From an uncultured Acidobacteriota bacterium (lineage in GTDB: Bacteria; Actinomycetota; Acidimicrobiia; Spongiisociales; ZC4RG35), in contig CAWHEU010000022.1 in assembly GCA_963828465.1 (NCBI GenBank), forward strand, positions 64,001 through 128,000: 64,000 bases of DNA. Direction: 5' to 3'. A program made the translations under genes and the position numbers. The notes beneath the pieces were generated by a model. The model searched no databases and was not told where the DNA came from. It saw nothing but the letters and a program-made list of their open reading frames with translations. Positions 14,717 through 62,072 of the stretch are shown piece after piece. How positions within the stretch are numbered: the stretch's first letter is position 1; every line of letters begins with the position of its first letter.

Positions 14717-15319
14717 ATGTTGATCCGTCCGGTCGAGCCAGCAGATCTCGATGCCCTCTACGAGGTCTGTCTCCGCACCGGTGACGCCGGGGAGGACGCG
14801 AGCGCCCGGTTCGTCGACGGCCGTCTCCTCGGTGAGGTCTACGTCGGGCCCTACTTGATGATGCCTAGCGGGATCGGTTTCACCGCAGTAGCGGAAGGCT
14901 TCCCGTCCGGGTATGTCCTGGCCGCCGTCGACACCCGGCGATTCGAGGCCGAATGCGAGGCGGAGTGGTGGCCTCCGTTGCGCGATCGATACCCACAACC
15001 GGTGGTCGACGATCCGTCGACCGACGACGCCGAGATCATCGCCCTGATCCACGATCCGGAGAGCCCACCCGACGAGATCGTGGCCCGATATCCGGCCCAT
15101 CTCCACATCGATCTGCTCCCCGTCTTGCAGGGTAGAGGGGTGGGTCGAGAGATGATGAGCCGTCTCCTCGATGAGCTGCGGGCCAGGGGAGCGCCCGGTG
15201 TCCACCTCGGAGTCGACGCACGCAACCAGCGCGCCGTCGGCTTCTACGAGCACCTCGGTTTCGAACATCTCGATGACAGCGATGCTGTCGTGATGGGGGT
15301 GCGGCTCGACGAGAGCTGA
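14717..15319 (+). CDS. GNAT family N-acetyltransferase
   Basis: YPAHLHIDLLP.LQGRGVG, GVHLGV, N.RAVGFYEHLGF. Confidence 0.92.
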   Translation: MLIRPVEPADLDALYEVCLRTGDAGEDASARFVDGRLLGEVYVGPYLMMPSGIGFTAVAEGFPSGYVLAAVDTRRFEAECEAEWWPPLRDRYPQPVVDDPSTDDAEIIALIHDPESPPDEIVARYPAHLHIDLLPVLQGRGVGREMMSRLLDELRARGAPGVHLGVDARNQRAVGFYEHLGFEHLDDSDAVVMGVRLDES

Positions 15320-15585
15320 GGTCGAGGGGCCGAGAGTCCGGGGTGAATGGCATCTGGCGCCCTGTCAGGATCTGACGGGCGTCTTGCGGGTGCCACGTGG
15401 CGGACGGCCGGGCCGGGAGGAGCCCAAATTGACCATCCACCACGCGACCTCTGGTCTGTCGTGGCGACAGAGCCGATGCCGTGGGCCCAATCGGCCGCAC
15501 GAGCCAGAGCCAGGCCGTTTCGGCTGAAGGGCCCACAGCATCACTCATCGCCGCGTATCACCTCCTCTCTGACATCCACCCACCG

Positions 15586-17178
15586 TCAGCTGGAGAGATG
15601 TTGCGACTGACCGATCGACTGACCAGTGCCGTTCCGGTTGGCGGCTATCGCCTTGGTCCCGGCTTCGTTGGACTGATCGAGGTCCTTCTGGCCGCGGTCG
15701 GACATGTTGGACTGATCGGTTTCAGCGTTCGGCTGTGCGTTCTGGTTGGTGGTGTTGTTGTTCCCAGCCGTCTGTGACTGAGTCCTGACACACCGGTCGC
15801 AGTCCGCCCCGAGGCAGTCCTTGTCCTTGTGGTCGCGGTCGTCCTTGTCCTTGTGGTCGCGGTCGTCCTTGTCCTTGTGGTCGCGGTCGTCCTTGTCCTT
15901 GTGGTCGCGGTCGTCCTTGTCCTTGTGGTCGCGGTCGTCCTTGTCCTGGTGGTCGCGGTCGTCCTTGTCCTGGTGGTCGCGGTCGTCCTTGTCCCGGGCA
16001 GTCTGATCCTGGTCGATCGACTGCTCGGTGCCGTTCTCGTTGACGGCTAAGACGGTGGTCTCAGCCTCGTTGGACTGCTCGGCGCCATCGCGTTCGCGCT
16101 CCGACTCGTAGCCCTTGTTCCAGGTCGGATTCGGGGCCTGAGCCTGGTCGGATCCGGTCTGATTGGACTGGTTGGTCGTCGCGCTGGGAGTGGCGTCTTG
16201 GTTGGTGGTGTTGTTGTTCTCAGCTGTTTGCGTCTGAGATCCGCCACTTTCCGAACCGCACTTGCCGCAGCTATCACGGTCGTCACCGGCGGTCTGATCC
16301 TGGTCGATCGACTGCTCGGTGCCGTTCTCGTTGACGGCTACGACGGTGGTCTCAGCCTCGTTGGCTTGTTCGGCGCCACCGTTTTCACGATGCGAGTCAT
16401 CACTTTTCCACTCCTTCGGGGCCCAGGACTGACCCTTGTCAGACCCGATCTCGTTGGACTGGTTGGTCGTCGCGCTGGGAGTGGCGTTTTGGTTGGTGGT
16501 GTTGTTGTTCTCTGCGTATTGCTCGAGATAACCGTCACCTTCCGAACCGCACTTGCCACAGCCACCAAAGTCGTCACCGGCGGTCTGATCCTGGTCGATC
16601 GACTGCTCGGTGCCGTTCTGATTAACCCCAACGACAGTGGTCTCAGCCTCGTTTGACTGATCGACTTTGCCGTTGTTGCTGTCCTTGCTGAGGACGGCCA
16701 CCGGGGCATACACGTTGACCTGATTGGTCTCCGCGCTCGGCTCTGCGTTCTGGTTGGTCGTGTTGTTGTTCTCAGCTGTTTGCGTCTGAGATCCGCCACT
16801 TTCCGAACCGCACTTGCCGCAGCTATCACGGTCGTCACCGGCAGTCTGATCCTGGTCGATCGACTGCTCGGTGCCGTTCTCGTTGACGGCGACCACCTTC
16901 GTATCAGCCTCGTTCGACTGATCCACTTTGCCGTTGTTGCTACCGGTGCTGAGGACAGCTATCGGTGCATACACGTTGACCTGATTGGTCTCGGCGCTCG
17001 GCTCGGCGGTCTGGTTGGTCTCGTTTGTGTTGGTTGCTTCTTGGGTCAGGCTGATGATCGCCTCGGGGTCCACAGGGAGTGGACTCTCCGAACTGGCACT
17101 CGCCATTCCGGCGGTTGCGATCATTGCCCCACTGGCGAGCGCGGCCGTTGTCAGCGCTCTCTTGAGCCAGTGCTTCAT
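15586..17178 (-). CDS. Secreted Asn/Gln/Thr-rich repeat protein with CxxC linkers (functional-amyloid/beta-solenoid candidate)
   Basis: Signal peptide ending AGMASA; five imperfect repeats of A.N.N.TNQ.A.P.A.T.Q.N ... Q.NEA.T.V.AVN.NGTEQSIDQDQ; CGKC three times plus CDRC; RBS GGAGGTG. Confidence 0.8.
   Translation of the reverse strand: MKHWLKRALTTAALASGAMIATAGMASASSESPLPVDPEAIISLTQEATNTNETNQTAEPSAETNQVNVYAPIAVLSTGSNNGKVDQSNEADTKVVAVNENGTEQSIDQDQTAGDDRDSCGKCGSESGGSQTQTAENNNTTNQNAEPSAETNQVNVYAPVAVLSKDSNNGKVDQSNEAETTVVGVNQNGTEQSIDQDQTAGDDFGGCGKCGSEGDGYLEQYAENNNTTNQNATPSATTNQSNEIGSDKGQSWAPKEWKSDDSHRENGGAEQANEAETTVVAVNENGTEQSIDQDQTAGDDRDSCGKCGSESGGSQTQTAENNNTTNQDATPSATTNQSNQTGSDQAQAPNPTWNKGYESERERDGAEQSNEAETTVLAVNENGTEQSIDQDQTARDKDDRDHQDKDDRDHQDKDDRDHKDKDDRDHKDKDDRDHKDKDDRDHKDKDDRDHKDKDCLGADCDRCVRTQSQTAGNNNTTNQNAQPNAETDQSNMSDRGQKDLDQSNEAGTKAIAANRNGTGQSIGQSQHLSS
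15817..15993 (-). repeat. 24-bp coding tandem repeat, about 7.4 copies, encoding DKDDRDH(K/Q)
   Basis: gtccttgtccttgtggtcgcggtc units read directly. Confidence 0.97.
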
Positions 17179-17182
17179 GATT

Positions 17183-17255
17183 CACCTCCATTGGGTGTCT
17201 GAGAAAACGCGCGACGGGCAGTCAGTCCTCGCTCGCGCGTTGCGAAATGGAGGTG
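17183..17255 (-). promoter_or_regulatory. RBS-sequestering nested stem-loop (anti-SD) between the two repeat-protein genes
   Basis: Minus-strand mRNA: stop UAA, C, CACCUCCAUU ... AACGCGCGA ... UCGCGCGUU ... AAUGGAGGUG, AAUC, AUG; outer 10-bp and inner 9-bp perfect inverted repeats. Confidence 0.8.
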
Positions 17256-17256
17256 G

Positions 17257-18552
17257 TTAGCCGGGTAGCTCTAGTGCCTCTGCCAGGGCGAATGGGCGCC
17301 AGACAACCGGTCGAGGCCGGAGCCAGCGGCTCAACCGGGGCGCGATCAACCCGAGCAGAACGAGTACAGCTAGAAGACCTGATGTCGAGCCGGAGCTCGA
17401 GGAGGATGATGAGACAACGACCCCTGGTCGAGCTCGAAGCCCGGCACCCTCAAAGTCATACGGTGGGGGTTCAGGGCGGTTGGCGGCAGCTCTCGCGTCG
17501 GCTGCGCCGCCGGCCGCACTAGGAGTCGGCGACGCAGCAGCCACGACGGAATCCGAACCGTCGTCGACGATTACAGGCCGAGCCGTGAGCGGCGGTGGCA
17601 GCGGGCTACCGATTGTTGGCGGCTGTGGCCTCGTGGTGGGTCTCGTGGACCCCTGGTCCGGAGTGGGGATGGCTGTCTCCGGGTCATCGGAAGGGGGATT
17701 GGGCGCTGCCGGATCAGGATCCGTAGCAGAACCTCTGTCTGGGACGTCGTCGACTCCTCCGAGCAGATCTTCTGGCGAGGGGACCAAAGGGAGGGTGACA
17801 CCGACTAGATCATCGACCCCGTCGAGAATCGGGCCCGATACGTCATCGACGAGCCCGGTCGTTTCTTCGACCGTGGTCGTAACCACACCGAGAACGGGTT
17901 GCAGCGGCTCCGCGATCTGTTCGAGTGTCGGCGGAACAGTCCGGACAATTCGAGTCACCGGCTCTTCGATGGTGCCGGCGACGGAATCCACGACTTTCGG
18001 CACCGTATCGGTGACCGGTTCGGCGGCTTCGGTGACCGGTTCGACGACCCTGGTGACAGGTTCCACGGCTTCGGTGACCGGTTCGACGGCTTTGGCTACC
18101 GGTTCGACGACCCTGGTGACAGGTTCCACGGCTTTGGTGACCGGTTCGACGACTTGGGCTACCGGCTCGACGACCCTGGTGACCGGTTCCACGACTGCGT
18201 TCACGGGATTCTGCGGGGCGGGTTGCTGCGTGGGAGCGACGTCGCGCGAGGCTGGCTCAGGGACGATTTCGGTCACATCTTCGACGACTTCGGCAACACC
18301 AGTCTCCGACTGCTCGGGCTCCGGCTCGGGCGTAGATCCGGTTCCGGTTCCGAGGTCAATCTCCACTGGAAGCTCTTCGACGACCTCACCGATGCCGAGG
18401 GCCTGTGCGGTCCCGGCAGAGAGCGAGATCATGAATGCAGCCAGAGCGAGTGCGCCAGCGATCCTGGCGAGGGGATGTGCCTGACGCCGGTCTGCTGTTC
18501 CGGCCCGTGGAGCCTCTGTTACCGAATGCCTATCCATACCCAGCCCATGCAT
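17257..18552 (-). CDS. Exported Pro/Val/Glu-rich repeat protein with C-terminal TM helix and basic tail ending LELPG
   Basis: RBS GGGAGG before ATG 18552; hydrophobic signal ending AGTAQA; VEPV repeats; Ser run, GLLAVLVLLGLIAP, RLSRWLRPRP. Confidence 0.78.
   Translation of the reverse strand: MHGLGMDRHSVTEAPRAGTADRRQAHPLARIAGALALAAFMISLSAGTAQALGIGEVVEELPVEIDLGTGTGSTPEPEPEQSETGVAEVVEDVTEIVPEPASRDVAPTQQPAPQNPVNAVVEPVTRVVEPVAQVVEPVTKAVEPVTRVVEPVAKAVEPVTEAVEPVTRVVEPVTEAAEPVTDTVPKVVDSVAGTIEEPVTRIVRTVPPTLEQIAEPLQPVLGVVTTTVEETTGLVDDVSGPILDGVDDLVGVTLPLVPSPEDLLGGVDDVPDRGSATDPDPAAPNPPSDDPETAIPTPDQGSTRPTTRPQPPTIGSPLPPPLTARPVIVDDGSDSVVAAASPTPSAAGGAADARAAANRPEPPPYDFEGAGLRARPGVVVSSSSSSSGSTSGLLAVLVLLGLIAPRLSRWLRPRPVVWRPFALAEALELPG
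18007..18195 (-). repeat. 21-bp imperfect coding tandem repeat, 9 copies, encoding (V/A)VEPV(T/A)x
   Basis: VVEPVTR VVEPVAQ VVEPVTK AVEPVTR VVEPVAK AVEPVTE AVEPVTR VVEPVTE AAEPVTD. Confidence 0.93.
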
Positions 18553-18669
18553 ACCGTCGGACCTCCCGCGAGGGAGGTGCCTGGCTCCGGCGACGAGCAC
18601 CATACCCGACTCATGGGATCTCGAAACCACAACGGTTAGAAGCGCGAAAAGAAACCTTGCCGTGGCTCG

Positions 18670-18777
18670 TCATCCATCCGAGGCCGCGAGCGCCAGAGGT
18701 CGCGACCCCTCATCGGGTCCACCGGGACCCTGCATGATGCCGTCCAGGGTGACGAATGTGGTCGCGGTCAGGTTCAT
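18670..18777 (-). pseudogene. N-terminal remnant (35 aa) of a dihydrofolate reductase/RibD-C family gene
   Basis: RBS GAAGGAGAAGG, then MNLTATTFVTLDGIMQGPGGPDE, matching the family N-terminus, then early stop. Confidence 0.75.
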
Positions 18778-18897
18778 GACCTTCTCCTTCCTGACCGGTT
18801 TTCGGCCTTCATGACTAACGAATCGGTCCGGCCCGGATCGGCAAGTCCGAGAGTTCAATCCCAGGATGCCGACCACGCCCTGGTTAACGTTTTTCGC

Positions 18898-20289
18898 ATG
18901 GGAGCGAAGGTGGCGGGTCGAAACAGGGCTGGGCCCGCGTCCAAGCAATGGAGTATCCCCTCCAAGCTGACCTTGGCCACTGTGCCGATCGTGGTGGTTG
19001 CTGGCCTGCTCGGGGTGTTCCTGGTGTGGTCGCTGTCGGCTTCAGGAGATGTCTGGCTTGCGGTGATAGTCGGGATCGTTGTCGGGCTCGTGGCTGTCGG
19101 ATCGCTTGTCGTCTCTTACCGGATCGGCCGAGCGATCGGCACCCGAATCGGTGCTGTCACCCACGCAGCGAGGCGTGTCGCCCATAAGGATCTGGTCGAG
19201 CTGCTCGACGCACTGCGCACATCCGATCCTGGCTCCGACGCCATCTCACCACTGGGTCTCGACATCGACTCGGGCGATGAGATCGGTGATCTGTCCCGAT
19301 CATTCGAAAACATGCACCGGGCCTTGATCGATACTTCGACCCGACAGATGGAGTCTTTGCGTGTAGGGGTGTCGGGCATCCTGGTAACTCTCGCTCGGCG
19401 CAACAGCTCGCTGGTCGATCGACAGCTGGCGCTGCTCGACGAACTCGAGTCCCGCGAGGAGGATCCTGAGACCCTCGGAGGGTATTACCAGGTCGACCAT
19501 CTGGCGGCACGGATGCGCCGGAATGCCGAAAGCCTCCTCGTGCTCGCCGGGTCCGAGTCACCCCGTGTATGGGCTAAGCCCACGGAGATCTCCGATGTGG
19601 TTCGAGCTGCGCTGAGCGAGGTGGATGAGTACCAGCGCGTCGAGCTGCTCGCCTTGGAGCCGGCTCGCCTGTCTGCCGGAGCCGTTACCGATGTCGCACA
19701 TCTCCTCGCCGAGCTCTTCGAGAACTCCCTGCAGTTCTCTCCGCCGACCGAGCCCGTGCGCGTCACCGGGCTATTCGACGTCGGTGGGTATGAGCTCTCG
19801 ATCTCGGACCACGGGGTCGGGATATCCGACCCGAGGCTGGCCGAGATGAACCGGATCCTCGAGCGCCCGCCCGCCCTCGGCCTATCGGTCGAGCCCACGA
19901 TGGGGATATATGTCGTAGCGAAGCTCGCCCATCGGCACGGGCTCGATGTCCAGCTGATCCCCAGTGTCCCCGGAATCACTGTCAAGGTGACCATTCCCCG
20001 CGATCGTCTGGAGATGGCGAGGGTAGAGCCGGACTACGACGTCATCGATCTGACACAGCCAGAGATGATCGAAACCGCCGACCCTGAGCCGGTCGCGGTG
20101 GCGCCGGTGCCTGTCGCCGAGGTGGAAGCCGGAGATCTGCCGGTGCGCATCCCGGGCCGAGCGTTCCGCGAGGAGGAGCCGGCAACAACCATCGCTGCCG
20201 GAGAGGGCGGCGGCACCCTCAGATCGGCGCTGGTCGATTACAACCGGGGCAGGGCCGAGGCCGAGGCACAGGGGGAGAGCGATGACTGA
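18898..20289 (+). CDS. Conservon sensor histidine kinase-like protein (CvnA)
   Basis: Two TMs, HAMP (DEIGDLSRSF), LARR...LDELESREEDPETL...DHLAARMRRNAESLLVLAG, LAELFENS..FSPP, DHGVGI; TAACGT 7 nt before ATG 18898. Confidence 0.92.
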   Translation: MGAKVAGRNRAGPASKQWSIPSKLTLATVPIVVVAGLLGVFLVWSLSASGDVWLAVIVGIVVGLVAVGSLVVSYRIGRAIGTRIGAVTHAARRVAHKDLVELLDALRTSDPGSDAISPLGLDIDSGDEIGDLSRSFENMHRALIDTSTRQMESLRVGVSGILVTLARRNSSLVDRQLALLDELESREEDPETLGGYYQVDHLAARMRRNAESLLVLAGSESPRVWAKPTEISDVVRAALSEVDEYQRVELLALEPARLSAGAVTDVAHLLAELFENSLQFSPPTEPVRVTGLFDVGGYELSISDHGVGISDPRLAEMNRILERPPALGLSVEPTMGIYVVAKLAHRHGLDVQLIPSVPGITVKVTIPRDRLEMARVEPDYDVIDLTQPEMIETADPEPVAVAPVPVAEVEAGDLPVRIPGRAFREEEPATTIAAGEGGGTLRSALVDYNRGRAEAEAQGESDD

Positions 20290-20707
20290 CGCTGCCACCA
20301 ATCTCAACTGGCTGATCGAGCGTCTCTGCGCGACAGTGCCCGCCATCAAACAGGCGGTCGTGGTCTCATCCGATGGGCTCGCCATGGCCAAGTCACAGGA
20401 CGTCGACCGCGAGACGGCGGAGAGATTGGCTGCCGTGTCATCAGGCATGATCGGCCTGGCCTACGGGTCCGCCGGCCGGTTTGGGGCCGGTGCGGTGTCG
20501 AACATCATCGTCGAGATGCAGCAGGGTTGGCTCTTCGTCACCGGCATCCGTCACGGCTCCCTCCTCTGCTGTCTCACCAGCAAAGAGATCGACCTTGGGG
20601 CGGTCGCCTTCGAAATGTCCATCTTCGTGCAGCGGGTCGGCGACAGTCTCACTCCCGACGTTCGGGAGGAGCTCAAGGCACGGCTGGTCGAACCCGAGCC
20701 GGCATGA
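20282..20707 (+). CDS. Roadblock/LC7 domain protein (CvnB)
   Basis: LNWLI, AVVVSSDGL, AERLAAVSSG, VEMQQGWLFV. Confidence 0.93.
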   Translation: MTDAATNLNWLIERLCATVPAIKQAVVVSSDGLAMAKSQDVDRETAERLAAVSSGMIGLAYGSAGRFGAGAVSNIIVEMQQGWLFVTGIRHGSLLCCLTSKEIDLGAVAFEMSIFVQRVGDSLTPDVREELKARLVEPEPA

Positions 20708-21084
20708 GCACCGAGCCCGGAACCCCTCTCGGCGGCCGGATCGTCCGCCCATACACCATGACCGGTGGGCGGAGCGGTGTGGGACTCCCCAATATCGCCC
20801 TCGAAGCCCTGGTCGCCGTGACCCCTGCTGGGATGCGAATGCGGGGTCGTTTCCGCTGGGAAGCCGCTGAGATCATCGCCCAGAGCCGCAAGGAGATCGC
20901 CATCGTCGAGCTGGCGGCGAATCTCGAGGTCCCGGTCGGCGTGATCCGTGTTCTCGCCGCTGACCTGCGCGACCAAGGAGCGATCACCATCACCGAGCCG
21001 CTGTCCGAAGCCACGGTCGATTCAGGTGACACCGAATATGCCGAACTCCTCCACAAGGTGCTCGATGGGATCCGGGCTCTCTGA
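20704..21084 (+). CDS. DUF742 domain protein (CvnC)
   Basis: IVRPYTMTGGR, VELAANLEVPVGVIRVLAADL, LLHKVLDGIRAL; ATGA overlap. Confidence 0.93.
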   Translation: MSTEPGTPLGGRIVRPYTMTGGRSGVGLPNIALEALVAVTPAGMRMRGRFRWEAAEIIAQSRKEIAIVELAANLEVPVGVIRVLAADLRDQGAITITEPLSEATVDSGDTEYAELLHKVLDGIRAL

Positions 21085-21652
21085 GCGCACCGGGCTGACC
21101 CCGGTCAAGATCGTCATCGCCGGCGGCTTCGGCGTGGGCAAAACGACCTTCGTTGGCGCCATCTCCGAGATCGAGCCATTGCGAAGCGAGGCGATCATCA
21201 CCGACGCCAGCGCGGGGATCGATGAGCTCTACCCCGACGGCACTAAGACCGAAACGACGGTGGCCATGGATTTCGGCCGCATCAGCCTCAAGCATCGTCT
21301 CGTCCTCTATCTGTTCGGCACCCCCGGTCAGGACCGCTTCCATTTCATGTGGGACGAGCTGGCCCGGGGCGCCATTGGGGCAGTGGTCCTGGTCGACACC
21401 CGCCGAATCGAGGCGTGTTTTGCCGCCATCGACTTCTTCGAGAAGCGGGGAACACCGTTCGTAGTGGCGGTGAACACCTTCCACGGGCGTCGAATCCACG
21501 AGCCCGAACTGGTTCGGGAAGCACTGCGCATTGGCCCCGACATCCCGATTGTCTATTGCGATGCCAGGGTCCGTGTGGATGTCCAACGAGCGCTACAGGC
21601 GGTGGTCGAACACACCTTGGAACGGGTGATGTCCGAGTCTGCGGCCAGCTGA
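21065..21652 (+). CDS. Small ATP/GTP-binding protein (CvnD, MglA-like)
   Basis: KIVIAGGFGVGKTT, TTVAMDFGRI, LYLFGTPGQDRF, CDAR. Confidence 0.94.
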   Translation: MGSGLSERTGLTPVKIVIAGGFGVGKTTFVGAISEIEPLRSEAIITDASAGIDELYPDGTKTETTVAMDFGRISLKHRLVLYLFGTPGQDRFHFMWDELARGAIGAVVLVDTRRIEACFAAIDFFEKRGTPFVVAVNTFHGRRIHEPELVREALRIGPDIPIVYCDARVRVDVQRALQAVVEHTLERVMSESAAS

Positions 21653-60896: not shown

Positions 60897-62072
60897 ATGA
60901 GCAACGCAGGCACCCCCGCTCCGGACATCCGCCCGTTCCAGATCCAGGTCCCGCCGGAGAAACTCAACGATCTCCGTGACCGACTCTCAATGACCCGATG
61001 GCCTGCCCAACCCAGTGGCACCGGCTGGGAGCGAGGAGTGCCGCTCGACTATCTCCGGGGTTTGGCCGGCTACTGGTCAAATGGCTTCGATTGGGCGAAC
61101 CAGCAGAAAGAGCTCAATCGGTTCGCTCACCACATGACGACTGTGAACGGCCAGGACATCCATTTCGTCCATGCCCCCTCTCCCGAGCCCGACGCTCTGC
61201 CGCTGGTGCTGCTTCATGGCTGGCCGGCATCATTTGTCGAGTTCGACCGGGTCATCGGCCCCCTCAGTGATCCGGTCGCTCACGGCGGCAATGCCGGGGA
61301 TGCCTTCCATGTGGTCGTGCCGTCGATTCCCGGATTCGGGTATTCGCCGCCGCCTCAGGAGCCGGGATGGTCCACCGGCCGAGTGGCCGCGACCGTCGTC
61401 GAAGTCATGCATCGCCTCGGCTATGAGCGATACGGCGCCCACGGCGGCGATATCGGCGCCGGCGTCGCTGGGGGTCTGAGCCCTGCCGACCCGGCCGGGG
61501 TGGTAGGAGTGCATGTGGCGTCCGACCCGCGCACTGCGGTGTCATTCGCCATGTTCGCGGGCGATCCTGCTGAGACACCGGGACTCAACGACCAAGAGCG
61601 GGAGCGAGTGGAGGCCATGAAAGTGGCTTCCGCCGACGACATGGGCTATCTCCAGATCCAAGCCACCCGTCCCCAGACGTTGGCTTATGGCCTCAACGAC
61701 TCGCCGGTCGCACAGCTGGCCTGGATCGTTGAGAAGTTCCGGGCATGGACCGACGCAGTCGCTGAGTTACCCGAGGACGCCGTCGACCGCGATCAGTTGC
61801 TGACAAACGTCGCGGTCTACTGGTTCACAGGGACCGGCGCTTCGGCCGCCCATTTTCTCTACGACAGCATGCATTCCCAGGACTGGGGTGAGGAGGGGGC
61901 GGCGCCGACGGGCTTTGCTGTGTTCGGTCGGGACACGGTGACCCGGCGCCTGATGGACCCCGAAGGGCGGATCGAGCACTGGACGGAGTTCGACCGCGGC
62001 GGGCACTTTCCGGCCATGGAGGTGCCCGACCTACTCGTCGAGGACATCAGGTCCTTTTTCAGGCTCCGCTGA
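60897..62072 (+). CDS. Epoxide hydrolase (microsomal type)
   Basis: HGWP.SFVEF, PSIPGFGYS, GGDIG, DSPVAQLAWIVEKF, GGHFPAME. Confidence 0.94.
   Translation: MSNAGTPAPDIRPFQIQVPPEKLNDLRDRLSMTRWPAQPSGTGWERGVPLDYLRGLAGYWSNGFDWANQQKELNRFAHHMTTVNGQDIHFVHAPSPEPDALPLVLLHGWPASFVEFDRVIGPLSDPVAHGGNAGDAFHVVVPSIPGFGYSPPPQEPGWSTGRVAATVVEVMHRLGYERYGAHGGDIGAGVAGGLSPADPAGVVGVHVASDPRTAVSFAMFAGDPAETPGLNDQERERVEAMKVASADDMGYLQIQATRPQTLAYGLNDSPVAQLAWIVEKFRAWTDAVAELPEDAVDRDQLLTNVAVYWFTGTGASAAHFLYDSMHSQDWGEEGAAPTGFAVFGRDTVTRRLMDPEGRIEHWTEFDRGGHFPAMEVPDLLVEDIRSFFRLR

Follow-up and report, generated by a model that had tools for sequence, protein, structure and literature searches.

A helix between the end of one gene and the Shine-Dalgarno sequence of the next, conserved in a pair of bacterial repeat-protein genes, as a candidate device for translational coupling

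The gene pair and its junction

The window, a stretch of 64,000 nucleotides (nt) of DNA from an uncultured bacterium, carries on its minus strand two adjacent open reading frames (ORFs) with tandem repeats, at whose junction the Shine-Dalgarno (SD) sequence of the second gene is complementary to a strand lying one base past the stop codon of the first (Table 1). It forms part of a 3.07-Mb assembly of 29 contigs and 64% GC, referred to here as G000. The upstream protein begins with a hydrophobic, signal-like segment ending AQA, as read from the sequence, continues through a body of VEPVT-type Pro-rich repeats, and has in its C-terminal part a hydrophobic segment, LLAVLVLLGLIA, followed by a basic tail of 27 amino acids (aa) that ends in ELPG and the stop. 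The downstream protein, by the same kind of reading, carries a signal peptide (MKHWLKRAL...GMASA) ahead of imperfect repeats of ~90 aa, which are rich in Q, N and T, contain CGKCG motifs and display a conserved N/Q/T/A pattern. Neither protein matched a Pfam or NCBIfam family at cut-off. An earlier sequence-only reading of this DNA had proposed that the junction is a secretion-monitoring translational switch, in which a ribosome dwelling at the end of the upstream gene would uncover the SD of an amyloid-like protein.

Table 1. Features of the gene pair and its junction, in window coordinates
Feature	Position	Strand	Remarks
Upstream ORF	17257..18549	-	430 aa from ATG 18549; from the ORF list; tandem repeats; alternative GTG 18630 in the same open frame
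Codons GAG CUA CCC GGC UAA	17271-17257	-	E-L-P-G-stop; family C-terminal motif (E)xPG-stop
Upstream stop UAA	17259-17257	-	directly 5' of C 17256
C, first base past the stop	17256	-	C at 23 of 24 loci (U in G1261)
Anti-SD arm CACCUCCAUU	17255-17246	-	5' arm of the outer stem; exact complement of 17192-17183
Inner hairpin, 9 base pairs (bp)	17206-17241	-	AACGCGCGA (17241-17233) with UCGCGCGUU (17214-17206); nested within the outer stem
SD arm AAUGGAGGUG	17192-17183	-	pairs 10/10 with CACCUCCAUU; paired probability 1.00
Downstream AUG	17178-17176	-	start of the 530-aa ORF
Downstream ORF	15586..17178	-	530 aa; from the ORF list; tandem repeats

The coordinates and sequences that this reading had given for the junction were reproduced exactly on the minus-strand mRNA, including the second 9-bp stem nested inside that formed by the SD and anti-SD strands. 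The GGAGG core of the SD lies 6 nt ahead of the AUG, and the inner hairpin has an imperfect extension, followed by UUUUCUC. When the 87 nt from 17262 to 17176 were folded with RNAfold, the nested structure was both the minimum free energy (MFE) structure and the centroid, at -33.1 kcal/mol (z = -3.18), with 0 of 200 dinucleotide shuffles equally stable, and the same stems were retained when the fold was extended to 151 nt, although the overall z was then only -1.27 and 21 of 200 shuffles were as good. For comparison, 152 same-strand gene pairs of G000 with an intergenic distance of 45-125 nt and an SD-like motif served as controls. The probability that the SD is paired with the region from -30 to +16 of the upstream stop was 0.9997 for the window pair, which ranks first among the controls; their median was 0.005, with at least 0.59 in 20, at least 0.77 in 9 and at least 0.95 in 6 of the 152.

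No promoter-like or terminator-like site was predicted between the two genes by a promoter and terminator scan, and a scan of 15000-19500 against Rfam 15, on both strands at E<=1, returned 0 matches. An RNA thermometer was considered and rejected, the stem of -33 kcal/mol being too stable and Rfam giving no match. Metatranscriptome contigs of relatives (85-95% identity, two libraries) cover 17073-17213 and 17262-17436, with carry-over of DNA possible; those over 17073-17213 diverge from the window past 17213, and no RNA contig spans the intergenic region.

Conservation of the junction among relatives

The downstream gene is present in 6 of the 201 genomes of the family, making the pair rare. 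DNA across the junction was gathered for 24 loci from about 10 lineages, which reach beyond the class of the window. Ten of these form the window's own clade (G000, G046, G019, G003, G233 and the metagenome loci L054-L058), with a junction DNA identity of 87-92% in the four genomes compared. The other lineages are G076 (one locus); G682, G688, G836 and G837 (four loci); G839 (one); G887, G888 and G890 (three); G884 (one); G881 (one); and, in other classes of the phylum, G1261, G1130 and G1046, each a lineage with one locus. G017 was left out because its contig begins at the gene and offers no DNA ahead of it. L053 was rejected as a chance signal-peptide match, and the weak matches in G818, G852, G778, G706 and G679 proved on inspection to be unrelated proteins or wrong frames.

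All 24 loci are predicted to keep an SD-sequestering stem anchored where the upstream ORF ends, as the sequence-only reading would require, with a sequence and register that vary by lineage. The SD pairs with the -30 to +16 region of the stop with a probability of at least 0.59 at every locus and of at least 0.77 at 22 of them. In the MFE structure the partner of the SD core is found at +6 to +16 from the stop in the window's clade and G076, and at -22 to -14 elsewhere, that is, within the last 5-8 upstream codons; in the window's family the outer helix begins 1-3 nt past the stop. The helix sequences themselves are unrelated across lineages: CACCUCCAUU pairs with AAUGGAGGUG in G000, ACUUCACCU with AGGUGAAGU in G076, CUCCUCGAG (Leu-Leu-Leu-Glu codons) with GAAGGAG in G682, UCCUUGAUCGA with UCGAUUCAAGGA in G887, and UCCUGAUCGAG with CUCGAAUCAGGA in G881, where a single-base difference in one strand has its match in the other. 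The loop between the strands always holds one or two stable hairpins, unrelated between lineages, and the spacing from stop to start runs from 56 to 111 nt. The pairing sequences have been replaced repeatedly and the geometry has been kept, with the anti-SD within ~22 nt of the stop and hairpins before the SD.

Within the window's clade, positions 1-7 of the anti-SD are unchanged in 10/10 close relatives, and the adjoining spacer is variable. In the inner helix 86.8% of alignment cells are paired, and two pairs are altered on both sides. The covariation that the earlier reading had named as a check is statistically weak among the 10 sequences, with a score of 0.069 compared with 0.056 for shuffles, 46 of 500 of which scored as high. 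Variation in this clade is too small for significance, and the argument therefore rests on the geometry shared between lineages rather than on classical covariation.

The hairpins within the loop bear on another explanation, in which the inner hairpin and the U-rich run would act as an intrinsic terminator or attenuator, so that most transcripts would extend no further than the first gene. The window does have a 9-bp GC-rich stem followed by UUUUCUC; however, the terminator scan, whose limit the loop exceeds, did not call it, and two of the U residues belong to the stem. L057 (GUGUCC) and G076 lack the U-run, and the hairpins of the other lineages are unrelated and have no U tract. What is conserved is the SD-pairing architecture and not the U tract, which makes a terminator highly improbable.

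Conservation extends to the peptide. The upstream ORF ends in xPG-stop at 24 of 24 loci, a conservation that the earlier reading had put forward as a check, and Glu occupies position -4 at 23 of them, with Ala in G019. The endings that occur before the stop are ELPG, EVPG, ALPG, ERPG, ESPG and ECPG; ERPG is found in 7 of 10 lineages, with E(L/V)PG in the window's clade, ESPG in the G682 clade and ECPG in G884. The motif is written with synonymous codons (GAA/GAG, CGG/CGC/CGA, CCC/CCU/CCG, GGC/GGU) and all three types of stop codon are in use. Because the codons vary synonymously, the constraint on the motif acts on the peptide and not on the RNA. PG-stop closes 28 of 2598 crude ORFs of G000, and a check of the other PG-stop ORFs of this genome (28 ORFs) for a like module found none similar.

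Predicted opening by a ribosome and probable translational coupling

The effect of a ribosome at the end of the upstream gene was modelled as the cost of opening the RNA between the SD start and the start codon, either free or carrying a footprint from -12 to +14 of the first P-site base. In free mRNA this cost averages 12.1 kcal/mol over the 24 loci (range 7-21), against a median of 8.3 kcal/mol in the 152 controls. When a footprint sits in the final 30 nt or on the stop, the cost drops by 3 kcal/mol or more at 21 of the 24 loci, compared with 18 of the 152 controls, and by 5 kcal/mol or more at 18 of 24, compared with 7 of 152 (the window pair being among the 7); the control median drop is 0.34 kcal/mol. 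For all 10 loci of the G000 clade and for G076 the drop is confined to two positions of the A site, the last sense codon (Gly) and the stop, at which the cost goes down from 9-16.5 to 4-8.6 kcal/mol; in the remaining lineages the drop starts ~10 codons earlier. The proposal that a ribosome on the last codon or stop would uncover the SD agrees with this thermodynamic model, in which the stem is predicted to open.

A high opening cost in free mRNA, 7-21 kcal/mol, would also suit a constitutive throttle or stability element, that is, a hairpin that lowers downstream translation or protects the mRNA, and so sets the ratio of the two proteins regardless of upstream translation. Structured ribosome-binding sites (RBSs) are common in G000, and in several lineages residual pairing persists with the ORF end blocked, both of which are consistent with such a role. 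A pure throttle could sit anywhere, however, whereas the anti-SD lies within ~22 nt of the stop at 24/24 loci despite the replacement of the pairing sequences; the ribosome-dependent drop of at least 3 kcal/mol, far commoner here than in the controls, argues in the same direction, and an element of this kind is regarded as quite improbable.

The favoured interpretation, held with a probability of roughly 0.6, is translational coupling of the RNA-unfolding type. In free mRNA the downstream RBS would be locked by a long-range helix whose partner strand sits right where the upstream ORF ends, and the hairpins between the strands would bring stop and start near each other. A ribosome at the last codon, or in the act of terminating, would cover or unwind the anti-SD strand, leaving the SD free for a new 30S subunit, and the spacing of 56-111 nt would give that subunit room while the first ribosome is still on the stop; upon departure of the ribosome, the helix would re-form. 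The secreted Q/N-rich repeat protein would thus be made only from mRNAs on which its membrane-targeted upstream partner is under translation, and probably only while a ribosome finishes the first gene. The scheme supposes co-transcription of the two genes and dependence of the second on translation of the first, both of which, like any pause, we infer.

In the window's clade the open state would be limited to the decoding of Gly and to termination, steps that are expected to be slow; Pro-Gly-stop therefore likely prolongs the time for which the helix is open, and its slow decoding is probably an aid to coupling. In peptide-bond formation, Pro performs poorly as a donor and Gly as an acceptor. 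Peptide release in vitro is reported to be slow where the C-terminal residue is Gly or Pro (Pierson 2016, cited in PMC7246954). The invariant Pro-Gly ending hints at a deliberate pause, short of proof.

Coupling by RNA unfolding is described as established for E. coli rpmI-rplT (+52 nt), the coat and lysis genes of phage MS2 and f1 genes VII-IX in the review PMC12548453. As in those systems, the RBS is locked with the end of the upstream ORF and finishing ribosomes would open the helix, here by prediction, and the spacing of 56-111 nt, like the +52 nt of rpmI-rplT, should permit a second ribosome to bind. Unlike those systems, the anti-SD of the window's clade falls wholly past the stop, which leaves the last decoding step and termination as the sole events that could open the helix; in addition, the upstream product has an invariant C-terminal Pro-Gly-stop, and the genes that would be coupled encode two secreted repeat proteins of uncharacterised role. 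RNA-unfolding coupling has been documented for few operons, and the device seen here is conserved over about 10 lineages. It may serve as a natural system for asking whether a nascent peptide can tune the dwell time at termination, and through it the efficiency of coupling.

Several observations weigh against coupling of this type. Occlusion of the RBS would by itself be not unusual in a genome of 64% GC, given the modelled control median of 8.3 kcal/mol. Covariation in the close clade is weak, and 7 of the 10 outer-stem pairs never vary. The ribosome-dependent drop stays below 3 kcal/mol in G046 (2.1), G888 (2.9) and G884 (2.8), and the equilibrium model leaves a structure of 4-8 kcal/mol on the RBS despite the ribosome; in G887, G888, G890, G881 and G884 the SD core mostly remains paired through alternative local partners. 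The contrast of 21/24 loci with 18/152 controls takes the minimum over six ribosome positions for the family and over four for the controls, and the control genes are crude, uncurated ORF calls made for this analysis and filtered by codon-position GC. TAA is usually an efficient stop, and its use at 13 of 24 loci does not suggest selection for weak termination; of the crude G000 ORFs, only 193 of 2598 (7%) end in TAA.

Further gene pairs of G000 have an SD that is predicted to pair with the region of the upstream stop at a probability above 0.98, on contigs C26 (minus strand, stop at 61422), C20 (plus, 185795), C18 (plus, 168544) and C12 (minus, 1569), in strand-oriented coordinates. These are possible additional coupling hairpins, subject to the crude gene calls.

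The Pro-Gly-stop ending, the encoded proteins and their surroundings

In the upstream proteins whose N-termini were read, the sequence shows a hydrophobic, signal-like segment that ends AQA or AHA. Eleven upstream proteins were inspected for a C-terminal hydrophobic segment, nine by hydropathy windows and those of G1130 and G1046 by reading of the peptides, and 8 of the 11 have a clear segment followed by a tail. The tail measures 23-28 aa by hydropathy windows, and by reading ~26 aa in G1130 and ~31 aa in G1046. The best 15-residue hydropathy window stays below 2 in G682 (0.93), G839 (1.66) and G890 (1.89). In L056, a metagenome contig, an in-frame internal deletion fuses mid-protein ...EIHEP to PLELPG-UAA, ~170 nt before the downstream start; the C-terminal hydrophobic segment has gone, and the reading frame, stop and hairpin are kept.

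These features bear on a second mechanism, that of regulated arrest, in which the (E)RPG-stop tail, lying in the exit tunnel, would stall the ribosome at the stop codon, the pull of export or membrane insertion of that nascent chain would relieve the stall, and downstream translation would report on the export of the partner, as in SecM-secA and MifM-yidC2. The invariant motif with its synonymous codons, pointing to selection on peptide rather than RNA, speaks for such a mechanism, as do the N-terminal signal-like segments and, in 8/11 proteins, a hydrophobic segment with a tail of conserved length, the whole of which would lie in the exit tunnel while the ribosome terminates. Since the stem of the window's clade is predicted to open at the last two decoding steps and no earlier, the time that a ribosome spends there matters. 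C follows the stop at 23/24 loci against a genome background of 32.4% of 2598 crude ORFs. Arrest at stop codons by C-terminal motifs is documented for NSP-stop, NAP-stop and DGMK-stop in PMC10987492. However, the anti-SD lies within the last codons of the ORF in most lineages, where ordinary translation would open the stem, and no arrest is therefore needed. The hydrophobic segment is degenerate in G682 and G839 and lost in L056 with the module kept; the ORF, at 300-470 aa, resembles a structural repeat protein rather than a short monitoring peptide; and a response that makes more of an aggregation-prone secreted protein upon export failure would follow an odd logic. Regulated arrest is considered unlikely.

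The monitoring substrates treated in PMC10987492 and PMC7897499 stand upstream of secA, secDF or yidC and carry RAPP-like motifs, and RAPP-like arrest is described in the former as a stall with the third motif residue in the P site. The upstream product here resembles the Sec/YidC monitoring substrates and RAPP-like (RQH) arrest peptides (SecM, MifM, VemP, ApcA, ApdA and ApdP) in having a putative N-terminal export signal and a conserved motif at its extreme C-terminus, and the 5' arm of an SD-sequestering stem is likewise placed where the ribosome would sit. It differs from them, on the descriptions in those two papers, in its (E)xPG-stop motif, its long ORF and a downstream gene that is neither sec nor yidC. 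ELPG and ERPG fall outside the motif (R/Q/H)(A/G/D)(P/G/S)(P/G) as defined in PMC10987492, and the downstream protein, with its Q/N-rich repeats and lack of a Pfam or NCBIfam family, is not a Sec or YidC component; both points had been foreseen in the sequence-only reading, which called arrest unproven. Failing the RAPP-like definition and having a non-translocon target, the module is therefore not a member of the monitoring-substrate family.

A further likeness is to the stop-codon arrest peptides, which also have conserved residues immediately before the stop of a putative regulatory upstream ORF (PG-stop at 24/24 loci here), although the last residue in this case is Gly after Pro; the module could still work as they do, though this is unlikely. 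It is likewise a tentative suggestion, and an improbable one, that (E)RPG-stop represents a new termination-arrest class, which would keep the ribosome on the anti-SD and so restrict synthesis of a secreted Q/N-rich, fibre-like protein to the moment and site of its anchored partner's completion at the membrane, and perhaps sense the export or insertion of that partner. If true, this would be the first monitoring-substrate-like switch with a cargo protein as target in place of a Sec or YidC component, and the pair offers a natural system for asking whether arrest-type control extends beyond Sec/YidC genes. The ending (I/L)ExPG also resembles that of viral 2A peptides, ExNPG then P, a likeness that is not counted as evidence. 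A literature search, which did not cover the supplementary lists of arrest-peptide papers, found neither an ERPG-stop element nor this gene pair described.

In G000 (WRPFALAEALELPG, window 17257-17340), G076 (WRDDGLALAIERPG, L050) and G1046 (WPAAAPSRAFERPG, L133) the tail has a Trp at a distance of exactly 14 residues ahead of the C-terminal Gly. It is found at this position of the tail in these three distant lineages only, and not in the remaining ones.

The pair marks an uncharacterised two-gene module of an anchored Pro-rich repeat protein and a secreted Q/N-rich repeat protein. The latter had been called amyloid-like, a description that is not supported: no Curlin_rpt or other Pfam match was found at E<=1, and hhalign against E. 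coli CsgA gave a probability of 0.1%. It is like CsgA and other functional amyloids in being secreted, with imperfect Q/N-rich repeats and an alternating N/Q/T/A pattern, and unlike CsgA in that it has no Curlin repeat homology and that its fold could not be predicted: AlphaFold2 models of two repeat units, built from alignments of 16 and 40 rows, had unusable values of the predicted local distance difference test (pLDDT), 40.9 and 47.0. Among 1.84 billion, a profile of two repeat units retrieved 907 cluster representatives at E<=1e-3, 560 at E<=1e-10 and 285 at E<=1e-30. Six of the representatives were looked up, and five belong to clusters named 'hypothetical protein' and the sixth to a nameless cluster; the ESM Atlas gave matches only to unnamed Actinomycetota clusters, all < 0.9.

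The downstream gene contains a 24-nt tandem repeat (7.4 copies, 99% identity, window 15817-15994) coding for an array of DKDDRDH(K/Q). In three close relatives, L008 (G003), L052 (G019) and L051 (G046), the repeat gene has collapsed or is out of frame: G019 has its signal peptide joined to the last repeat, G003 a frame change past the signal peptide, and G046 several short frames. All three retain the hairpin, and the damage may reflect either real deletions of repeats or assembly errors within them. Paralogous secreted Q/N/S-rich repeat proteins, with GGGGNLTPQ and NVNxPxT repeats and CxxC motifs, are encoded at L114 (contig C25 of G682) and L115 (contig C1 of G837); a non-coding leader of ~300-400 nt takes the place of the upstream partner at both, with no xPG-stop partner, and these two genes, uninformative for the switch, were not counted among the loci.

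Divergent from the gene pair, at 18811-21652 on the plus strand, is a cluster of four genes whose adjacency to the pair is not kept in G682, where the neighbours are different. Its products are a HAMP/HATPase sensor kinase, a Roadblock/LC7 protein, a DUF742 protein and an ATP_bind_1 GTPase-like protein, and the gene order is that of the actinobacterial 'conservons'.

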